Notes: generated by a model not told the origin, from the sequence alone. Shown: positions 5,801 through 54,124, numbered from the stretch's first letter. The stretch is DNA of 64,000 nucleotides from Phenylobacterium sp. (GCF_041919955.1 NZ_JAYRSU010000008.1:2943-66942), one strand, 5' to 3'. Numbers and translations: made by a program.

Positions 5801-7108
5801 TCATTGGCTTGCGGGGGTCTGAACGGGCGCGGCCTGACGGCCAGCGGGCAGCGCCAGGCTGCAGATGGCGGCCGGCAGGTAGACAAGCGCCACAAAGACC
5901 AGGAAGCCGGAGGGGCCCAGATGGTCGAAGCTCCAGCCCGCGAGGCTTCCGCCCGCCGCGTAGCCGGCCTGCAAGGCGAAGTACCATCCGCCATAGGTCA
6001 CGGGAAACACCGCGTCCCCGAACTGGCGTCGGGTGAGCGTGATCCAGAGGACCTCGCCGGCGCCGAAGGCGAAGCCGAGAGCGAGCGCGCCGGCCCCTGC
6101 GAGGATCACGCTCCGGCTCTCAGGGGCGAGCGCCAGGGCAAAGACGCCAAAGCTGATCGCCGCCACGATCGCCAGCGCGCTCCACCTCGCGTTGAAGCGG
6201 TCGAGCATCCAGCCGATCGCGACCGAGCCCGTCGTGCTCCCGCCGGCGGTCATCCCCAGCAGAGTCGCCGCAGCAGCCGGCGAGAAGTGCGCGCGCCGCA
6301 ACAGCGCCAGCTCCTGGGTCAGGACGGCGATCGAAGCCATGCCGGCGCCGATCACCGCGACGAACATGCAGCCAGCCACCCACGGATTGATGGCTTTCAC
6401 GTCGCCGGACTGGGTATTGCCCGACTCGCCGCGCGCCGTCCGCGCGCCGTCGATCTCGCGCGCGGCGATCGGGTCGCCGTCCAGGCCCAGCCCCATCTCC
6501 GTCGGCGACGATGGACCGCGCGACAGGAGCGAGATGGCCACGGCGACCGCCAGAAGGCCGCCGGCGACGACCAGCGTCGCCGGCCGCCATCCCAGCGTCA
6601 GAACCAGCGCCTCAGTGGCCGGTGAGAGGGCCAGTCCGCCGGTCGAACCCCCGGCCCAAACCAGGGCCATGGCTGTGGCAAACCGCCTGGAGAACCAGCG
6701 GGCCGTCAGCATCGGGACAGCCGCGATCGCGAGGACCTTGCCGAAACCCATGACGATGCGCAGCAGATAGAGCTGCCAGAATTCCGTGACGAAGATCAGG
6801 GAGGCCAGCACCAGCGCTTCGGCGCAGAGACCGAACAGGATCAGGCCCCATGGGCTGAAACGCCGCGTCAACGGGCCATAGAACAGCGCCAATGGAGCGA
6901 CCAGCCACATCGCCGAAACGAGGCCGCCGGTTTGCGCCGCGCTCCACCCGTGCTCCTGAGCTAGGGGCTGGGCGACCACGATGAACGAATAAATGCTGGA
7001 GCCGAAGATCGCGAACGTACAGAGGAAGAGCGCCAGAACGACGCGCCATCCGAAGTAGACGCCACGCCCCAAGGACATCGACGCCGCCGCCGGCGGATAT
7101 TCCGTCAT
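5801..7108 (-). CDS. MFS transporter (OFA-like)
   Basis: About 12 hydrophobic segments; YFGWRVV N-terminus; ARWFSRRFATAMAL and GWMLDRFNAR motifs. Confidence 0.9.
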   Translation of the reverse strand: MTEYPPAAASMSLGRGVYFGWRVVLALFLCTFAIFGSSIYSFIVVAQPLAQEHGWSAAQTGGLVSAMWLVAPLALFYGPLTRRFSPWGLILFGLCAEALVLASLIFVTEFWQLYLLRIVMGFGKVLAIAAVPMLTARWFSRRFATAMALVWAGGSTGGLALSPATEALVLTLGWRPATLVVAGGLLAVAVAISLLSRGPSSPTEMGLGLDGDPIAAREIDGARTARGESGNTQSGDVKAINPWVAGCMFVAVIGAGMASIAVLTQELALLRRAHFSPAAAATLLGMTAGGSTTGSVAIGWMLDRFNARWSALAIVAAISFGVFALALAPESRSVILAGAGALALGFAFGAGEVLWITLTRRQFGDAVFPVTYGGWYFALQAGYAAGGSLAGWSFDHLGPSGFLVFVALVYLPAAICSLALPAGRQAAPVQTPASQ

Positions 7109-7381
7109 GCCGCTTTCCTCCCTCAGGGTCGTTCGCCCCGTTTGCGCGACTAGTATCGTCGCGCCACACAGAAAGTCGACAAAATTTGGCTTATTCCGGA
7201 CATTCGCAGATATTTTGAGCGAATTTGCGCATATATGTCGATTTTTATACAGACCAGGTGCAACCTGGACGAAGGCCTCGCCATGCAGCCCTGACCGCCC
7301 CAGGCCCGCATCCTCGGACCCCCAAGGGTTGCCGGGGAACGGCGATGCCGTTTAGCTCAGGCGCGAGGAGAGGAGACCTTG

Positions 7382-8131
7382 ATGCCGAGTCCGACCACCG
7401 CTGACGACGGCGCCTCCAAGCGCAAGCGCCGCGAAGGGCCGCGGACGCCGTCGCGCGGCCGAGGGGTCGCGCGGTACGGGGCGCTGCTGGACGCTACGGA
7501 GGCCCTGCTTCAGGTCGAGAACCCCGACACCATCGGTCTGTATCAAATCGCCGAACAGGCGGGCGTTCCACCTGCTTCGGTTTACCACTTCTTTCCCACA
7601 AAGGAGGCGGCGTATGTCGCCTTGGCTGAGCGCTACCTCGAAGGCCTGATGGAGGTTCACCGCGCGCCGATCGAGGCCCGTCTGCTAGGCGGATGGCAGG
7701 ACCTGCTGCGGATCGATTTCCGGCGGGCGATGGAGTTCTACAACGCCCGGCCGCCCATGAATAAGATTCTCTATGGCGGCTACGGGGGAATTGAGGCGCG
7801 CAACATCGACAAGCTGTTCTCCCTGAAACTGGCGAACGCGCACTACGATCGGCTGGACCGCATCTTCCATATGCCCTTCATGCGCAATCCCGGCGCCTTC
7901 TTCGAGAACCGCCTTGGAATCCTGGACGCGCTCTGGTCGATTTCGGTGCGTCGCTACGGCAGCATCACCGAGGAGTATCTCCTCGAAGCGCAGAGAGCCT
8001 GCAGCGCCTATACGCTGGTCTACCTCCCGCAATATCTCGAACCGCGCGAGTTGCTGGTCGAGGCCGCCGCGCGCGGCGAGGCGTTGACCCTGGCGTTCGA
8101 CCTGCCGGCGCAGGACGAACCCGCGGCCTGA
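7382..8131 (+). CDS. TetR/AcrR regulator, paralog 2
   Basis: [46 protein letters not shown] upstream; TTG 7379 is an alternative start. Confidence 0.9.
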   Translation: MPSPTTADDGASKRKRREGPRTPSRGRGVARYGALLDATEALLQVENPDTIGLYQIAEQAGVPPASVYHFFPTKEAAYVALAERYLEGLMEVHRAPIEARLLGGWQDLLRIDFRRAMEFYNARPPMNKILYGGYGGIEARNIDKLFSLKLANAHYDRLDRIFHMPFMRNPGAFFENRLGILDALWSISVRRYGSITEEYLLEAQRACSAYTLVYLPQYLEPRELLVEAAARGEALTLAFDLPAQDEPAA

Positions 8132-46555: not shown

Positions 46556-47731
46556 CTACGCCACCACGCTGATCGGCTTGTGGGTGAGGTAGCGGTCGAC
46601 GGCGGCGTCGTCGAGGTCGACGCCCCAGCCGGGGCCGGTGGGGACGTGGCCGAAGCCGTCCTGGTAGGTGATGCGGTCCAGGATCAGGTCGTCCTCCAGC
46701 ATCAGGTGCCCCTGCAGCTCGGTCGCGTGGCGGATGTTGCGCGCGCGGGCGGCGTGCATGTGCAGGATCACGGCGCTGCCGACGCCCGAGGGCTGGTTGT
46801 GCAGGACCACATCGAGGCCGCGCGCCGCGGCGTAGTCGATGGCGCGCAGGGCGCGGCTCATGCCGCCCGGGCGCTCGGCGTTGAGGCCGAAGGTGCGCAC
46901 GGCGTCCATCTCGGCCAGGGTGTGCAGGTCGCGCAGGCCGAAGGCGCCCTCGTGCGCCATCAGCGGAATGCGGGTCTGGGCCTGGAGCTTGGCCATGCCG
47001 GCGAAGTCGTCGGCGCGCACCGGCTGTTCGGCGAAGTCGATCCCGTAGGGGGCGATGGCGTCGAGCACGGCCAGGGCCTGGTTGGGGCCATAGGCCTGGT
47101 TGAAGTCGACCCGCAGAGCGACGTCGGGGCCGACCAGCTCGCGCATGGCCGACATGATCGCCACGTCCTGCGTCAGGCCGTCGCCGAGCTTGCAGCGGAA
47201 GGCGCGCACGCCCATGGCGAGGCCCTGGCGGGCCAGGGCGCAGATGACGTCCACCGAGGCCAGCGGCAGCACCATGCAGAGCGGAACCTTGTCGAGCTGG
47301 GCGCCGCCGCAGAGGTCATGGACCGGCCGCCCGATGCTGCGCGCGGCGACGTCGTGCAGGGCGAGGTCGAGCACGCCCTTGGCCATTTCGTTGCGGGCGA
47401 CGTTGTCGTCGAACTTGGCGTTGATCGCCTCGATGTCGAAGGCCGAGCGGCCGAGCACGAAGCGCGCGAGGTGGTCGCGGATGAGGTCGGCCATCAGGAT
47501 CGGCGAGACGCCGCTCTCGACCAGCCAGACGAAGGCCTCGCCGACGCCGGCGACGCCGCCCTCGGTGGTCATGCGGCAGATCAGGAAATCGCCGCCCAGC
47601 CAGTGGTCGTCGACATTGAGGCTCATGGCGACCTTGCCGCTGCCGCCCTGGAGCGCGGCGCGGACCTCCTCGCGGAACGGCACGTGCAGCGGATAGAGGT
47701 CGATGCGGACGATCGGGTCGCGCGGGCTCAT
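46556..47731 (-). CDS. Enolase superfamily (mandelate racemase/muconate lactonizing enzyme subgroup) with non-canonical active site
   Basis: GVGEA; AKGVLDLALHD; FRCKLG; RVDFNQ; FAEQP; VPTGPGWG. ATG 47731. Confidence 0.9.
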   Translation of the reverse strand: MSPRDPIVRIDLYPLHVPFREEVRAALQGGSGKVAMSLNVDDHWLGGDFLICRMTTEGGVAGVGEAFVWLVESGVSPILMADLIRDHLARFVLGRSAFDIEAINAKFDDNVARNEMAKGVLDLALHDVAARSIGRPVHDLCGGAQLDKVPLCMVLPLASVDVICALARQGLAMGVRAFRCKLGDGLTQDVAIMSAMRELVGPDVALRVDFNQAYGPNQALAVLDAIAPYGIDFAEQPVRADDFAGMAKLQAQTRIPLMAHEGAFGLRDLHTLAEMDAVRTFGLNAERPGGMSRALRAIDYAAARGLDVVLHNQPSGVGSAVILHMHAARARNIRHATELQGHLMLEDDLILDRITYQDGFGHVPTGPGWGVDLDDAAVDRYLTHKPISVVA

Positions 47732-48825
47732 CGGGTCAGCCTTTCTTCGAGATCGGGGGCGGCCAGGCCGCTCAGAGCTTGGGCGAAGACCTGGCGGCCG
47801 CGCGCCAGGACGGCTTCGCGCCAGGCGGGATCGGCGGGATAGAAGGCGGCCAGCAGCCGCGCCTTGATCGCCCTGCCCCGCTCGCCGGCCAGGTCGCCGT
47901 GATGGACCAGCCAATTGTCCTCGATCATGGCGCCCAGCACGGCCTCCCCCGGCTCGGTGCCGTATTCGAGCGTCATGGGCACGACGCGCACGCCGGCAAG
48001 CTGCGTCTCCATCGCCCCGTTCATGTAGCCGCCGAGGATGGTGTCGGCCGCCGAGCGCGGCCGCGGGGTGACGAACATCGGGCCGAACCACTGGGCGGTC
48101 AGGGCCTTGTGCGGCTCGTCGTCGCCAGCGGCCATCATCAGCATGCCGACGCCGCTTTCGCCGAGGCCGCTGTGCAGGTCGATCTGAACGACCACGCGGC
48201 GGCCGGCGAGGCGCCGGGCCCAGAGCTCCTCCACCGCCCGCCGCGACCAGCTGGGGCCCGCGCCGCCGTACTGGACGCCGCGCGGGAAGGCGTACTGGCC
48301 GCCTGAGACGGCCTTCATCATGGTCAGGTAGTCGCTCTGGGCTCGCATCCGGTCGAGCTCGGCGGCGATGGCGGCGAGCGCGCCGTCCGGCAGCTCCTCC
48401 GGGTTCAACAGGGCGTCGATAGCGGCGTAGGCCTCGTTCGCAGGGGCGCCGGCGGCGAAGTCGATGAAGTTGCGGTTGAGGTCGACATTGTCCTCGTTCA
48501 CCCGGCGCAGGTGCGAGAAGCCGTAGGGATTGACCGCATGGACCAGCATCAGGGCGGTGTCCGGCGGCAGGTCCGGGGCGTCCTGGACGAACTGGAGCTG
48601 AAGGGCCGAGCCGCAGAAGCCCTCCACGCCGTGGACGCCGCTGGAGATGGTCAGCACGCGGCCGGCGTCCTGCGGACCGCGCCAGAGCACGTCCATGTAA
48701 AGCGGCGCGCCGTCGGCGCCGGCCTGCGGGTGGTCGAGCGCCTCGTGCGTCCAGCCGCCGGCGGCGTCCGCGGCCGCGAGCAGGCGGTTGCGCGCCTCGC
48801 GATAGTCTTGCGAATAACAGGTCAT
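47728..48825 (-). CDS. DUF2817 / M14 zinc carboxypeptidase-like protein
   Basis: SGVHGVEG (HxxE); NPYGFSHLRRVNEDNVDLNRNF; DLHSG. Confidence 0.88.
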   Translation of the reverse strand: MTCYSQDYREARNRLLAAADAAGGWTHEALDHPQAGADGAPLYMDVLWRGPQDAGRVLTISSGVHGVEGFCGSALQLQFVQDAPDLPPDTALMLVHAVNPYGFSHLRRVNEDNVDLNRNFIDFAAGAPANEAYAAIDALLNPEELPDGALAAIAAELDRMRAQSDYLTMMKAVSGGQYAFPRGVQYGGAGPSWSRRAVEELWARRLAGRRVVVQIDLHSGLGESGVGMLMMAAGDDEPHKALTAQWFGPMFVTPRPRSAADTILGGYMNGAMETQLAGVRVVPMTLEYGTEPGEAVLGAMIEDNWLVHHGDLAGERGRAIKARLLAAFYPADPAWREAVLARGRQVFAQALSGLAAPDLEERLTR

Positions 48826-51016: not shown

Positions 51017-51619
51017 TCAGAAGAGGTCGAGCACAGCGGCGAGGGCTGTGGCGGTGCGGTCGAGGACTTCCGCCTCGCCGGCGAAGTCGGTCTCGAACAG
51101 CATCTCGACGGCGGCATAGCCGAGATGCAACGCCAGCCCCGCGCGCACTCTCAGCGTCTCGCCGTCAGAGGCCAGGCCCTGTTCGGCGAAGTAGTCGACC
51201 AACAGGACGGCCATGCGCTCCTGGTGTCTCAAGCGCACGTCGCGCAGTTCGGGAATGGCGCGAAGGGCGACGAGCAGTTCGAAGCCGCCGGTGAAGGCGC
51301 GGCTCATTCGCAGCGACTCGCTGAGCATGTCGCGGCAGATGGCGCGCAGGTCGTCCGGCGTGCGGACGCGTCGTCCGGTGTCGGTGCGGATCGCGGTGCT
51401 CTGGGCGCTCAGCATACGTTCGCCCAGCTCGCGCAGCAGCGCATGCTTGTTGGGGAAGTAGTGATAGAAGGTCGGCGGGGTCAGGCCTGCTCGTTCGGCC
51501 ACGGCGTTGGAATTGACGCCCTCAACCCCTGTCTCGGCGAGCAGCGCCTGGGCGGCCGTAACGAGGCGCTCGATGCCGCTGGGCTTCGCACCGGGACGCG
51601 CTTTTTGCTTCGAGCTCAT
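51017..51619 (-). CDS. TetR/AcrR regulator
   Basis: VNSNAVAERAGLTPPTFYHYFPNKHAL. ATG 51619. Confidence 0.9.
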   Translation of the reverse strand: MSSKQKARPGAKPSGIERLVTAAQALLAETGVEGVNSNAVAERAGLTPPTFYHYFPNKHALLRELGERMLSAQSTAIRTDTGRRVRTPDDLRAICRDMLSESLRMSRAFTGGFELLVALRAIPELRDVRLRHQERMAVLLVDYFAEQGLASDGETLRVRAGLALHLGYAAVEMLFETDFAGEAEVLDRTATALAAVLDLF

Positions 51620-51707
51620 AGGTCGATCTAGGGGCGCCGCCCCAGGCGGGCAAGACGCGCCCCTGCGATCGTCCTCGCCGCGCGCCGGGCCCATTTAAGA
51701 TACTTTC

Positions 51708-51808: not shown

Positions 51809-54124
51809 ATGATCCACACAGCTCTCACGCGCTCGGCCTTGAAGCGCGCGCTGTTCGCCGGCGCGGCCGCGGGCCTCACGCTGGGCGCGGCCTCGGCGGC
51901 GGGCGCCCAGGCGGCGGACGACACGACCACGCTCGGCGAGCTGGTCGTCACCGCCCAGAAGCGCTCCGAGCGCCTGCAGGACGTGCCGGTCTCGGTGAAC
52001 GTCGTCTCTGCCCAGGCCCTGGCCGACAGCCACGTCTCGGGCCTGCAGCAGCTTCAGCAGCTCTCGCCGTCGCTGGGCTTCACCCCCTCGGCCAACACCC
52101 GCGGCCAGGGGCTGTCGGTGCGTGGTCTCGGCACGCTCAACTTCTCGGACGGCGTGGAGCCGACTGTTTCGGTCGTGCTGGACGGCGTCGTCATCGGCCG
52201 CAGCGCCGGCTCGTTCTTCGACTTCAACGACGTCGAGCGGATCGAGGTGCTGCGCGGGCCGCAGGGCATGCTGTTCGGCAAGAACGCCGCTGCCGGCGTC
52301 ATCAACATCGTCACCGCCCGCCCCAACCTGACGGAAGTCGAGGCCGACGCCTCGATCAGCTATGCGACCTTCGATGAAGTTCGCGCCAAGGGCTCGGTCT
52401 CGGTGCCGATCAAGAGCGGCGAACTGGCCGCACGGATCTCGGGTTTCTACAATGAATCCGAGGGCTTCATCACCAACCGCTTCGACGGCAAGAAATATAA
52501 CGGCCTCAATTCCTACGGCCTGCGCGGCAAGCTGGTCTGGAGCCCGACCGACAGCTTCGACCTCTACGCCACCCTCGACTACAGCCGCGCCGACCAGGAC
52601 TGCTGCGTCAGCACGGTGCGGTCGATCCTGCCGACCACCCGTTATCTGGGTCCCACCGGCCCGACCCGCGCCTCGCTCTTCACCGGCGTCAATGTCGGCC
52701 CTTTCAGCCGTGAGGCGAACTTCGACGGCCGCGCCTTCAACGACCAGAACACCTGGGGCGCCTCGGTCGAGATGAACAAGGAGTTCGAGGCCTTCACCCT
52801 GACCTCGATCACCGCCTACCGGGCCTTCGAGGTCGAGGACAACAACGACGCCGACGGCGGCCGCCTGGCCCTGCTGAACGTCAACAGCGCCCACCAGAAG
52901 CAGGACCAGTTCACCCAGGAACTGCGCATCACCTCCCCGACCGGCCAGCGGCTGGAGTACGTGGCGGGCCTGTTCTACTTCGACCAGGACGTCTCCACGA
53001 CGACCGAGGTGCGCGGCAATTTCGGCCAGGTCCTGCCGGCCGGCGCCTACCTCCAGAATTTCATCGACCGGGCGATCAGCACCCGCAACTACGCCGTCTT
53101 CGGCCAGGCGACCTTCAACGTCACCGACGAGCTGAGGCTGATCGGCGGCCTGCGCTACACCAACGAAGAGCTGAAGGCCCGCTTCCTGCGCACCATCCCG
53201 ACCGGCGCCTTGGGCGCGGTCCCGGGCCTGGGCGGCCCCGCGCTCAACGCCCCGAACCTGCACGCCAAGGACGACGACCTCTCGGGCAAGCTTGGCGTGC
53301 AGTACAAGTTCAACAGCGACGTCATGGCCTACGCGACCTACTCGCGCGGCTACAAGGGCCAGGCGATCAACCTGCTGAACAACCTCAGCGCCGCCACCGT
53401 GAACTCGGGCCAATACGTCCTCGCGCCCGAGCGGGTGAACAACTACGAGGTCGGCCTGCGCACCACGCCGTTCGACCGCCAGGTGATCTTCAACGTCACG
53501 CTGTTCCAGACCGAGATCGAGAACTTCCAGGCTCAGACCTTCGATGCGAACACCACCAGCTTCGCCCTGGCCAACGCCGGCAAGCTGCGCTCGCGCGGGG
53601 TCGAGCTGGAGACCCAGTACCGCCCCAACCAGGCCTTCCAGTTCTCGGGCAACGTCGCCTATGCCGACACCCGCGTCGAAGGCTTCGCCCCGGCCTGCTA
53701 CCCCGGCCAGACGGCGGCGCTCGGCTGCGTGGGCGGGCGCCAGGAGGTCACCGGCAGCGCCCTGACCAATGCGCCCATGTGGTCCTACACCCTGGCCGCC
53801 AGCTACAACCGCGCGCTGGAATCCATCCCGTTCGACCTGACGGCCGACCTCTCCTACAGCTACCGCTCGTCGGTGTTCTTCACCTTCCGCGACCCCAACA
53901 CCGTCCAGCCCGGCTACGGCCTGCTGAACCTGAACGTCGGGCTGAAGAGCCAGGACGGCCGCTACGGCGTCACCGTCTTCGCGCGCAACCTGCTGGACGA
54001 GCAGTTCGTCTCGGGCATCGGCACCGGCTTCCTGGACACCAACGCCACCGGCGCCGGCTACACCCAGAGCATGACCGTCGACGCGTTCCGCCGGGTCGGC
54101 GTCGAGGCCCGTATGCACTTCTGA
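51809..54124 (+). CDS. TonB-dependent receptor
   Basis: Signal peptide; ELVVTAQKRSERLQDVP; ERIEVLRGPQGMLFGKNAAAG; C-terminal RMHF. Confidence 0.95.
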   Translation: MIHTALTRSALKRALFAGAAAGLTLGAASAAGAQAADDTTTLGELVVTAQKRSERLQDVPVSVNVVSAQALADSHVSGLQQLQQLSPSLGFTPSANTRGQGLSVRGLGTLNFSDGVEPTVSVVLDGVVIGRSAGSFFDFNDVERIEVLRGPQGMLFGKNAAAGVINIVTARPNLTEVEADASISYATFDEVRAKGSVSVPIKSGELAARISGFYNESEGFITNRFDGKKYNGLNSYGLRGKLVWSPTDSFDLYATLDYSRADQDCCVSTVRSILPTTRYLGPTGPTRASLFTGVNVGPFSREANFDGRAFNDQNTWGASVEMNKEFEAFTLTSITAYRAFEVEDNNDADGGRLALLNVNSAHQKQDQFTQELRITSPTGQRLEYVAGLFYFDQDVSTTTEVRGNFGQVLPAGAYLQNFIDRAISTRNYAVFGQATFNVTDELRLIGGLRYTNEELKARFLRTIPTGALGAVPGLGGPALNAPNLHAKDDDLSGKLGVQYKFNSDVMAYATYSRGYKGQAINLLNNLSAATVNSGQYVLAPERVNNYEVGLRTTPFDRQVIFNVTLFQTEIENFQAQTFDANTTSFALANAGKLRSRGVELETQYRPNQAFQFSGNVAYADTRVEGFAPACYPGQTAALGCVGGRQEVTGSALTNAPMWSYTLAASYNRALESIPFDLTADLSYSYRSSVFFTFRDPNTVQPGYGLLNLNVGLKSQDGRYGVTVFARNLLDEQFVSGIGTGFLDTNATGAGYTQSMTVDAFRRVGVEARMHF

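Follow-up and report, generated by a model that had tools for sequence, protein, structure and literature searches.

Subgroups of the enolase superfamily are defined by the strand ends that bear their acid/base residues, and much of the superfamily is without an assigned function. In members of the mandelate racemase (MR) and glucarate dehydratase (GlucD) types, a general-base histidine stands at the end of barrel strand 7 and has an aspartate partner at the end of strand 6. The subgroup of muconate lactonizing enzyme (MLE) is defined by a catalytic lysine at the end of strand 6 (bioRxiv 10.1101/2022.03.03.481873). In N-succinylamino acid racemase (NSAR), the arginine R266, three residues after the strand-6 lysine K263, tunes the reactivity of that lysine in two-base proton transfer, and NSAR works together with a GNAT protein and a desuccinylase in a pathway that turns D- into L-amino acids (same reference). 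We analysed a stretch of 64,000 nucleotides from Phenylobacterium sp. (NZ_JAYRSU010000008.1:2943-66942), which we call the window, and within it the gene of an enolase-superfamily protein, P0001. As judged by alignment, the family of P0001 joins an MLE-type strand-2 lysine to an MR-type strand-7 histidine, with an asparagine at the position of the dyad aspartate.

Residue equivalences were taken from HMMER alignments with MLEs of solved structure (3i4k; 1muc from P. putida), and codon coordinates were checked. The segments FKLKMG, MADES and LKTTKHGG of 3i4k align with FRCKLG, MAHEG and LNAERPGG of P0001. Counting along the alignment to 1muc, in a numbering that we take to agree with the literature numbering of MLE, H260 corresponds to D249, E261 to E250, N284 to K273, H311 to G300 and E338 to E327. 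K181 aligns with the second lysine of the canonical KxK motif, so that the strand-2 catalytic lysine of the MLE subgroup is present, and R179 takes the place of the first. In contrast, the strand-6 lysine of the subgroup is missing, as the K273 position holds N284 throughout the family. A preliminary description of this DNA had named the motifs RCK on strand 2, Asp on strand 3, Glu on strand 4, AHE on strand 5 and LNAERPGG on strand 6, and had proposed from them an active site rewired relative to the MLE subgroup. All five lie at the equivalent positions, and the rewiring is recovered in R179, H260 and N284. The superfamily has three metal ligands, at the ends of strands 3, 4 and 5, which are as a rule carboxylates or amides. 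At these positions of the alignment, D209 and E235 are kept, while the third is occupied by H260, followed by E261. Altered metal use by way of the histidine is plausible. E261 could, however, supply a carboxylate ligand in place of H260; it lies 26 residues after E235, the same spacing as between E221 and E247 of MR.

These replacements are fixed. A word-indexed search returned 120 homologs, 48-99% identical to P0001, from alphaproteobacteria, Hydrogenedentota, Abyssobacteria and Asgard archaea, and in the MAFFT alignment of the 121 sequences including P0001 every one carries R179, K181, D209, E235, H260, E261, N284, E286, R287, P288, G289, G290, H311, N312 and Q313. The same catalytic positions are invariant in a smaller alignment of 50 sequences, whose mean column identity is just 63%. 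The family is also well set apart: phmmer against 1.8 billion cluster representatives gave one full-length match at 412 bits, and the next reached 203 bits at about 32% identity. In a quick IQ-TREE run with a midpoint root, the family forms a clade with 100% SH-aLRT support on a stem of 0.94, nested within a 97% clade that holds the representatives P0131, P0139, P0135 and P0151. P0131 and P0139 have RxK and His-Glu and keep the strand-6 lysine; P0135 has the same three features plus a strand-7 histidine; P0151 has RxK, Asp-Glu and the lysine. Read from these states, the strand-5 histidine appears to predate the family. The change from lysine to asparagine appears specific to it among the representatives compared, and the strand-7 histidine occurs also in the outgroup P0135. 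Together, the invariance in 121 sequences and the stepwise states of the near relatives argue that the active site was rewired by steps under purifying selection, not by decay. The tree further suggests an order in which KxK became RxK, then Asp became His, and then Lys became Asn together with the strand-7 histidine, an order that hinges on the midpoint root. A separate MLE-like group among the representatives keeps KxK, the Asp, the Glu and Asp-Glu and has a tyrosine at the position of the strand-6 lysine (P0166, P0170, P0172, P0176, P0187, P0191, P0194, P0200, P0203, P0206 and P0209); this is another active-site variant, apparently also unassigned.

The invariance of H311-N312-Q313 had gone unmentioned in the preliminary description, and it bears on the chemistry. 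H311 directly follows the strand formed by residues 307-310 of the AF2 model, that is, it stands at the end of barrel strand 7. N284 and H311 share MAFFT columns with an Asp and a His, respectively, in P0143 (TD...MHSG), which is closely related to the GlucD-like 4dye/2oqh of S. coelicolor (GD...LHSG), and a fragment query aligned H311-N312 with the His-Asn of the MR-type protein 3mkc. Measured against the MR dyad by sequence alignment, with no superposition of coordinates, H311 fills the histidine column and N284 falls in the aspartate column. With a histidine at the MR/GlucD-type position, a two-base mechanism by lysine and histidine is possible. Thus, the proposal that the lost lysine implies one-base chemistry does not follow. 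It had been built on the statement that two-base racemases and epimerases need both lysines, which is right for the MLE subgroup and too wide for the superfamily, where MR-type enzymes work with a lysine and a histidine.

Pfam recognises MR_MLE_C (1.6e-50) and MR_MLE_N (2.9e-13) in P0001, which thus has the two-domain architecture of the superfamily, an N-terminal capping domain and a modified TIM barrel. The AF2 model has a pLDDT of 93.9 and a pTM of 0.93. The region has about 70% G+C, and an alternative 511-residue frame with a GTG start, given by the open reading frame (ORF) finder, was rejected because the homologs are 387-400 residues long and start at the same place. P0001 is an intact and strongly conserved member of a distinct, widespread and uncharacterised enolase-superfamily family, which by sequence resembles the MLE subgroup. 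Its genome holds just two further MR_MLE_C matches, both weak.

Comparison with solved structures places P0001 near the MLEs and NSARs. By Foldseek, the model belongs to the MLE/NSAR cluster, with identities of 21-29%, and the N-succinyl-Arg/Lys racemase 2p88 ranks first (TM-score 0.87); TM-scores are 0.85-0.87 for the MLE/NSAR fold and 0.8-0.87 to many superfamily members. A profile of the family scores 220 bits with 2p88, 196 with the dipeptide epimerase 3jva, 181 with the MLE 3i4k, 140 with the O. iheyensis galactarate dehydratase 2oqy and about 100 with mandelate racemase, and the dipeptide epimerase 1jpm is also among its best matches. When the single sequence was searched against solved structures, MLEs came best at 27-29% identity, and none exceeded 29%. 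The function had been described as unassigned, and our searches agree. P0001 stays below the cut-off of every equivalog and subfamily model in NCBIfam: the best, TIGR02534 (muconate cycloisomerase), gives 184.4 bits against 334.95, the L-Ala-D/L-Glu epimerase models give 70 against 500 (NF041118) and 37 against 343 (NF011708), and the o-succinylbenzoate synthase (OSBS) models give 20-63 bits, far under their cut-offs. NSAR/OSBS enzymes pair K163 and K263 with the second-shell R266; in P0001 the K263 equivalent is Asn and the R266 equivalent, R287, is present. The ESM Atlas returned generic MR_MLE clusters only, and literature searches on the family, DUF2817, Asgard muconate cycloisomerase and enolase-amidohydrolase neighbourhoods found nothing relevant. 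In all these searches, no paper, curated model, solved structure or characterised ortholog was found for the family. The alignments put neither Asp at the canonical strand-5 position nor Lys at the canonical strand-6 position, and P0001 is not the ortholog of a known epimerase.

We tentatively favour, at somewhat less than even confidence, the reading of P0001 as a racemase or epimerase in which K181 and H311 are the opposing bases and the substrate is an N-acylated amino acid or a small amide like it. K181 would abstract the alpha-proton of a carboxylate substrate, and a metal held by D209, E235 and H260 (or E261) would stabilise the resulting enolate, as a metal does in all members of the superfamily. 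On the opposite face, H311 would stand in for the lost strand-6 lysine as the second acid/base, giving an MR-like Lys/His pair on an MLE-like scaffold that could racemise or epimerise the N-acylated amino acid or small amide. Partner hydrolases would then deacylate the product, and in some lineages a linked GNAT may acylate first. Two observations lead us to favour this reading: the three roles are those of the GNAT/racemase/deacylase pathway, and the nearest characterised relatives are racemases and epimerases.

The partners come from the operon and from related loci. On the minus strand, the genes read, from 5' to 3', a TetR-family regulator, a YtcJ-like amidohydrolase (P0003), a DUF2817 protein (P0002) and, last, the enolase-family gene (Table 1). 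With their overlapping stops and starts, the last three form a translationally coupled operon. AstE/AspA-family proteins are N-acyl-amino-acid deacylases, and P0002 has a weak Pfam match to their catalytic domain (desuccinylase/aspartoacylase). Both hydrolases appear intact, as the translations show the metal motifs HxH, H, H and D in P0003 and HxxE and H in P0002; for neither is there a close structure of a characterised protein, and 3icj, 3igh and 3ieh match best. YtcJ-like enzymes that cleave N-acyl amino acids have been described, namely an epsilon-lysine acylase (PMC10699109) and a metal-dependent bile salt hydrolase (bioRxiv 10.64898/2026.04.05.716592).

To follow the association, one genome per GTDB species was scanned; the 203 relatives found were narrowed to 80 loci, and these were analysed by tblastn and ORF clustering. 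An amidohydrolase orthologue neighbours the enolase-family gene in half of them (40/80), mostly within a few bases and in an order that depends on the lineage. It is present in all 12 loci of alphaproteobacteria, in 22 of the 32 of other bacteria (14 of the 18 with full flanks) and in 6 of the 36 of archaea; DUF2817 is found in 10, 3 and none of these, respectively. Four of five Asgard genomes that have no adjacent amidohydrolase carry a copy elsewhere, 41-45% identical, and these genomes hold one enolase-family gene each. In a Promethearchaeota genome, a tandem pair of YtcJ-like amidohydrolases (G042:C9:379421-382749) lies about 370 kb from the single enolase-family gene. One GNAT orthogroup occurs in just 6 of the 80 loci. 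It is fused to DUF2817 in L043; in L015 and L063 it comes right behind the DUF2817 match, with no single ORF found across both. As a gene of its own it immediately follows the amidohydrolase in L065 and L079 and immediately precedes the enolase-family gene in L033. NCBIfam gave generic matches only for the linked GNAT. Fusions of DUF2817 with a C-terminal GNAT, of about 515-530 residues, make up 30 of the 120 best DUF2817 homologs, and the fusion of locus L043 is P0380 (L043:10983-12551, plus strand). Such a protein joins a deacylase-like domain to an acyltransferase domain (examples lie within P0339-P0411). By type, the transporters adjacent to the module are those of amino acids or small solutes. 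Set against known pathways, the co-located amide hydrolases of the window and the GNAT of the related loci make a neighbourhood that resembles racemase-containing pathways more than dehydratase or lactonase ones, and no recurring sugar-acid or catechol-pathway genes were seen in the loci whose neighbours were scanned. The P0001 gene was found in none of 24 sampled genomes of the same genus and none of 16 of the same order; consequently, the operon is an accessory module of patchy distribution.

Several points weigh against a Lys/His racemase. The geometry of H311, H260 and E261 is predicted from alignment and strand position. The strand-7 histidine of MR requires its aspartate partner, and an asparagine at the dyad should weaken H311 as a base, which favours an acid or binding role for it and hence elimination chemistry. 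E338, the Asn-Gln pair and the ELxxxLxxxDDL motif look like those of true MLEs. Moreover, the operon of the window and its whole genome contain no GNAT orthologue, most Asgard loci have an MFS_2 transporter alone beside the gene, and a simple scheme of racemisation followed by deacylation leaves two hydrolases per operon unexplained.

Some of these features speak for the main rival, one-base chemistry, which we regard as possible, if doubtful. Here K181 would abstract the alpha-proton and the enolate would collapse by beta-elimination (dehydration, deamination, or C-N or C-O lysis) or by cycloisomerisation; H311 would be the general acid for the leaving group or a binding residue, and N284 would just hydrogen-bond the enolate. 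The strand-6 lysine is lost in every member, and the expected poor basicity of H311, an argument that draws on the D270N variant of MR, would fit such a role. The retained E338 and the strand 7-8 motifs shared with the MLE 3dg3 of M. smegmatis point the same way, as do the dehydratase 2oqy, which on an MLE-like scaffold likewise lacks the strand-6 lysine and has Ser there, and the PF07476 domain (methylaspartate ammonia-lyase C-terminal domain) recorded on some homologs. However, racemases and epimerases head the profile matches, the dehydratase models of NCBIfam are all far from their cut-offs, and the conserved partners are amide hydrolases and GNAT, with no sugar-acid or catechol-pathway genes, aldolases or kinases among them.

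It is improbable that P0001 is an epimerase of the L-Ala-D/L-Glu type, acting on dipeptides or murein peptides. In such a system DUF2817 would be an MpaA-like M14 amidase and the amidohydrolase a dipeptidase-like enzyme, together recycling peptides with D-amino acids. In E. coli, mpaA adjoins the epimerase gene ycjG, and DUF2817 has a faint match to MpaA; 3jva and 1jpm rank high among the profile matches, and Asgard loci have an S15 peptidase and pyridoxal phosphate (PLP) enzymes close to the gene. Nevertheless, the strand-6 lysine that these enzymes need is absent, the epimerase models of NCBIfam score as low as given above, and strand 8 reads T-E-L as in MLE and not D-x-D, the ammonium-binding motif of dipeptide epimerases. 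DUF2817 is missing from most loci, and Asgard archaea themselves lack murein.

To chemistry of kinds other than those considered here we give little weight. A pseudoenzyme, that is, a catalytically dead binding or scaffold protein from an MLE-type ancestor, is very unlikely: two canonical catalytic or ligand residues are indeed replaced, yet every strand-end position, the replacements included, is invariant across archaea and bacteria, a pattern that decay would not yield, and translational coupling ties the gene to those of two metallohydrolases that appear intact. Finally, a canonical muconate or chloromuconate cycloisomerase, suggested by TIGR02534 as top NCBIfam match, by the label 'muconate cycloisomerase' on homologs at JGI and by MLEs as the best single-sequence matches in solved structures, is effectively refuted by the score of 184 bits against a cut-off of 335, the replacement of the K273 and D249 equivalents and the lack of catechol-pathway genes in the loci scanned for neighbours.

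Table 1. Positions of genes and predicted active-site residues at the P0001 locus, counted from the first nucleotide of the window.
Feature	Position	Strand	Remarks
Enolase-superfamily gene, P0001	46556-47731	(-)	391 aa; translation, Pfam, AF2, Foldseek, 121 homologs
R179-C180-K181, strand 2 (canonical KxK)	47189-47197	(-)	K181 corresponds to the catalytic Lys of MLE and NSAR
D209, strand 3	47105-47107	(-)	First metal ligand, predicted from alignment
E235, strand 4	47027-47029	(-)	Second metal ligand, predicted from alignment
H260-E261, strand-5 end	46949-46954	(-)	H260 at the position of MLE ligand D249; invariant
N284-A-E286-R287-P-G-G, strand-6 end	46862-46882	(-)	N284 in place of MLE K273; R287 at K+3
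H311-N312-Q313, strand-7 end	46793-46801	(-)	Candidate second acid/base; MR/GlucD-type His position; invariant
E338, strand 8	46718-46720	(-)	Equivalent of MLE E327
DUF2817 gene, P0002 (M14/AstE-AspA-like zinc hydrolase)	47728-48825	(-)	Stop overlaps the enolase-family start (ATGA)
YtcJ-like Amidohydro_3 amidohydrolase gene, P0003	48822-50456	(-)	Pfam 1e-87; stop overlaps the DUF2817 start (ATGA); start codon uncertain
TetR-family regulator gene	51017-51694	(-)	Upstream; tblastn match in 12 alphaproteobacterial loci
ORF of 171 aa	45959-46474	(-)	Directly downstream of the enolase-family gene
TonB-dependent receptor gene	51809-54124	(+)	Divergent from the TetR gene

Other features of the window and of the related loci are as follows. 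A scan of the locus for promoters and terminators gave nothing convincing. The ORF directly downstream of the enolase-family gene has four predicted transmembrane segments, no Pfam match and no counterpart in the 80 loci. The TonB-dependent receptor was rejected as a conserved partner, being present in 2 loci only at about 30% identity. In 10 alphaproteobacterial loci, the TetR and amidohydrolase genes have between them, on the opposite strand, the gene of an ATG22-like major facilitator superfamily (MFS) transporter (for example L012:3785-5200, L005:3876-5207 and L006:4863-6869, all on the minus strand), which is absent from the window and from its closest relative, L001; ORF cluster 12, at first taken as a conserved gene, is the antisense of this transporter gene and was discarded. 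An MFS_2 transporter stands beside the enolase-family gene in about 15-20 Asgard loci, and a Trp/Tyr-permease-like protein occurs in 6 loci, mostly deltaproteobacterial. In eight Promethearchaeota loci (L032, L036, L041, L044, L055, L060, L069 and L071), the enolase-family gene belongs to a conserved cluster that includes the gene of a PLP-dependent (PALP) enzyme; 7 of the 8 also have an S15 X-Pro dipeptidyl peptidase, and three small ORFs with no Pfam match recur in 7-8 of them. A BKACE gene recurs in Asgard loci that partly overlap this set. Just upstream of the enolase-family gene, PEMT/ICMT-like membrane methyltransferases are encoded in L021 of Promethearchaeota (7381-7917, plus strand) and L048 of Actinomycetota (7118-7909, plus strand), with no orthology between the two detectable by tblastn. 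In L065, from a proteobacterial metagenome-assembled genome, an RpiR/SIS regulator (6993-7949, minus strand) is divergent from the operon of enolase-family, amidohydrolase and GNAT genes, where the window has TetR.

Since the family is invariant across archaea and many bacterial phyla and yet fits neither the MLE definition (Lys/Lys) nor that of MR (Lys/His-Asp), it offers a clean test case for the relocation of catalytic residues on a fixed scaffold. It is tempting to propose, although we hold it doubtful as a whole, that it represents a new solution at subgroup level: an MLE scaffold with a re-created MR-like Lys/His pair, the dyad Asp being replaced by Asn or Glu286, and a metal-site histidine that possibly marks the exchange of Mg for a transition metal. 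With the YtcJ-like amidohydrolase as its partner, it could then make up a pathway, so far undescribed, that inverts the configuration of N-acylated (D-)amino acids or degrades them and that would be common among Asgard archaea and bacteria of sediments. If P0001 is a racemase, these proteins would be a second, non-orthologous enzyme set for N-acyl-D-amino acids, and two large families, DUF2817 and this clade's YtcJ-like amidohydrolases, would gain a function, in Asgard archaea as well. If it is an elimination enzyme, its reaction is probably new for the superfamily. Under either reading, automatic labels such as 'muconate cycloisomerase' on genes of this family are wrong.

Among known systems, the galactarate dehydratase II of O. 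iheyensis (2OQY/3ES7/3HPF), a 'divergent enolase', offers a precedent for an MLE-like scaffold without the strand-6 lysine, with Ser at the position of N284 and a Foldseek TM-score of about 0.80 to the P0001 model. It differs in its 24% identity, in a Gly at the H311 position and in its acid-sugar substrate, for which P0001 has no matching context; it reportedly also has a strand-5 ligand His, which would be a precedent for H260, and a strand-2 motif starting with Arg. The MR and GlucD types (MR; 4DYE/2OQH; 3MKC) share with P0001 the strand-2 lysine and the histidine at the strand-7 end, N284 and H311 occupying the dyad columns. In P0001, however, the dyad Asp is Asn and the third ligand position reads His-Glu, and MR scores about 100 bits where 2P88 scores 220. 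The MLEs (1MUC, 3I4K of C. glutamicum and 3DG3 of M. smegmatis) have K169 and E327 conserved in P0001 as K181 and E338, and 3DG3 shares the strand 7-8 motifs N-Q and ELxxxLxxxDDL. P0001 departs from them in having His for D249, Asn for K273 and Arg for K167, in its lack of a catechol-pathway context and in falling below the cut-off of TIGR02534. With NSAR (2P88), finally, P0001 is 25% identical and differs in strand-6 Lys to Asn, third-ligand Asp to His and the first Lys of KxK to Arg, and its family has an invariant strand-7 histidine. The hydrolases here are YtcJ-like Amidohydro_3 and DUF2817, whereas those of the NSAR system are M20, and a GNAT is missing from the window and its genome. Nevertheless, P0001 and NSAR have in common the fold, the strand-2 lysine, the Asp and Glu ligands and the arginine at K+3 (R287, as R266), and in both systems an enolase-family enzyme is found with amide hydrolases, joined in 6 of the loci related to P0001 by a GNAT.

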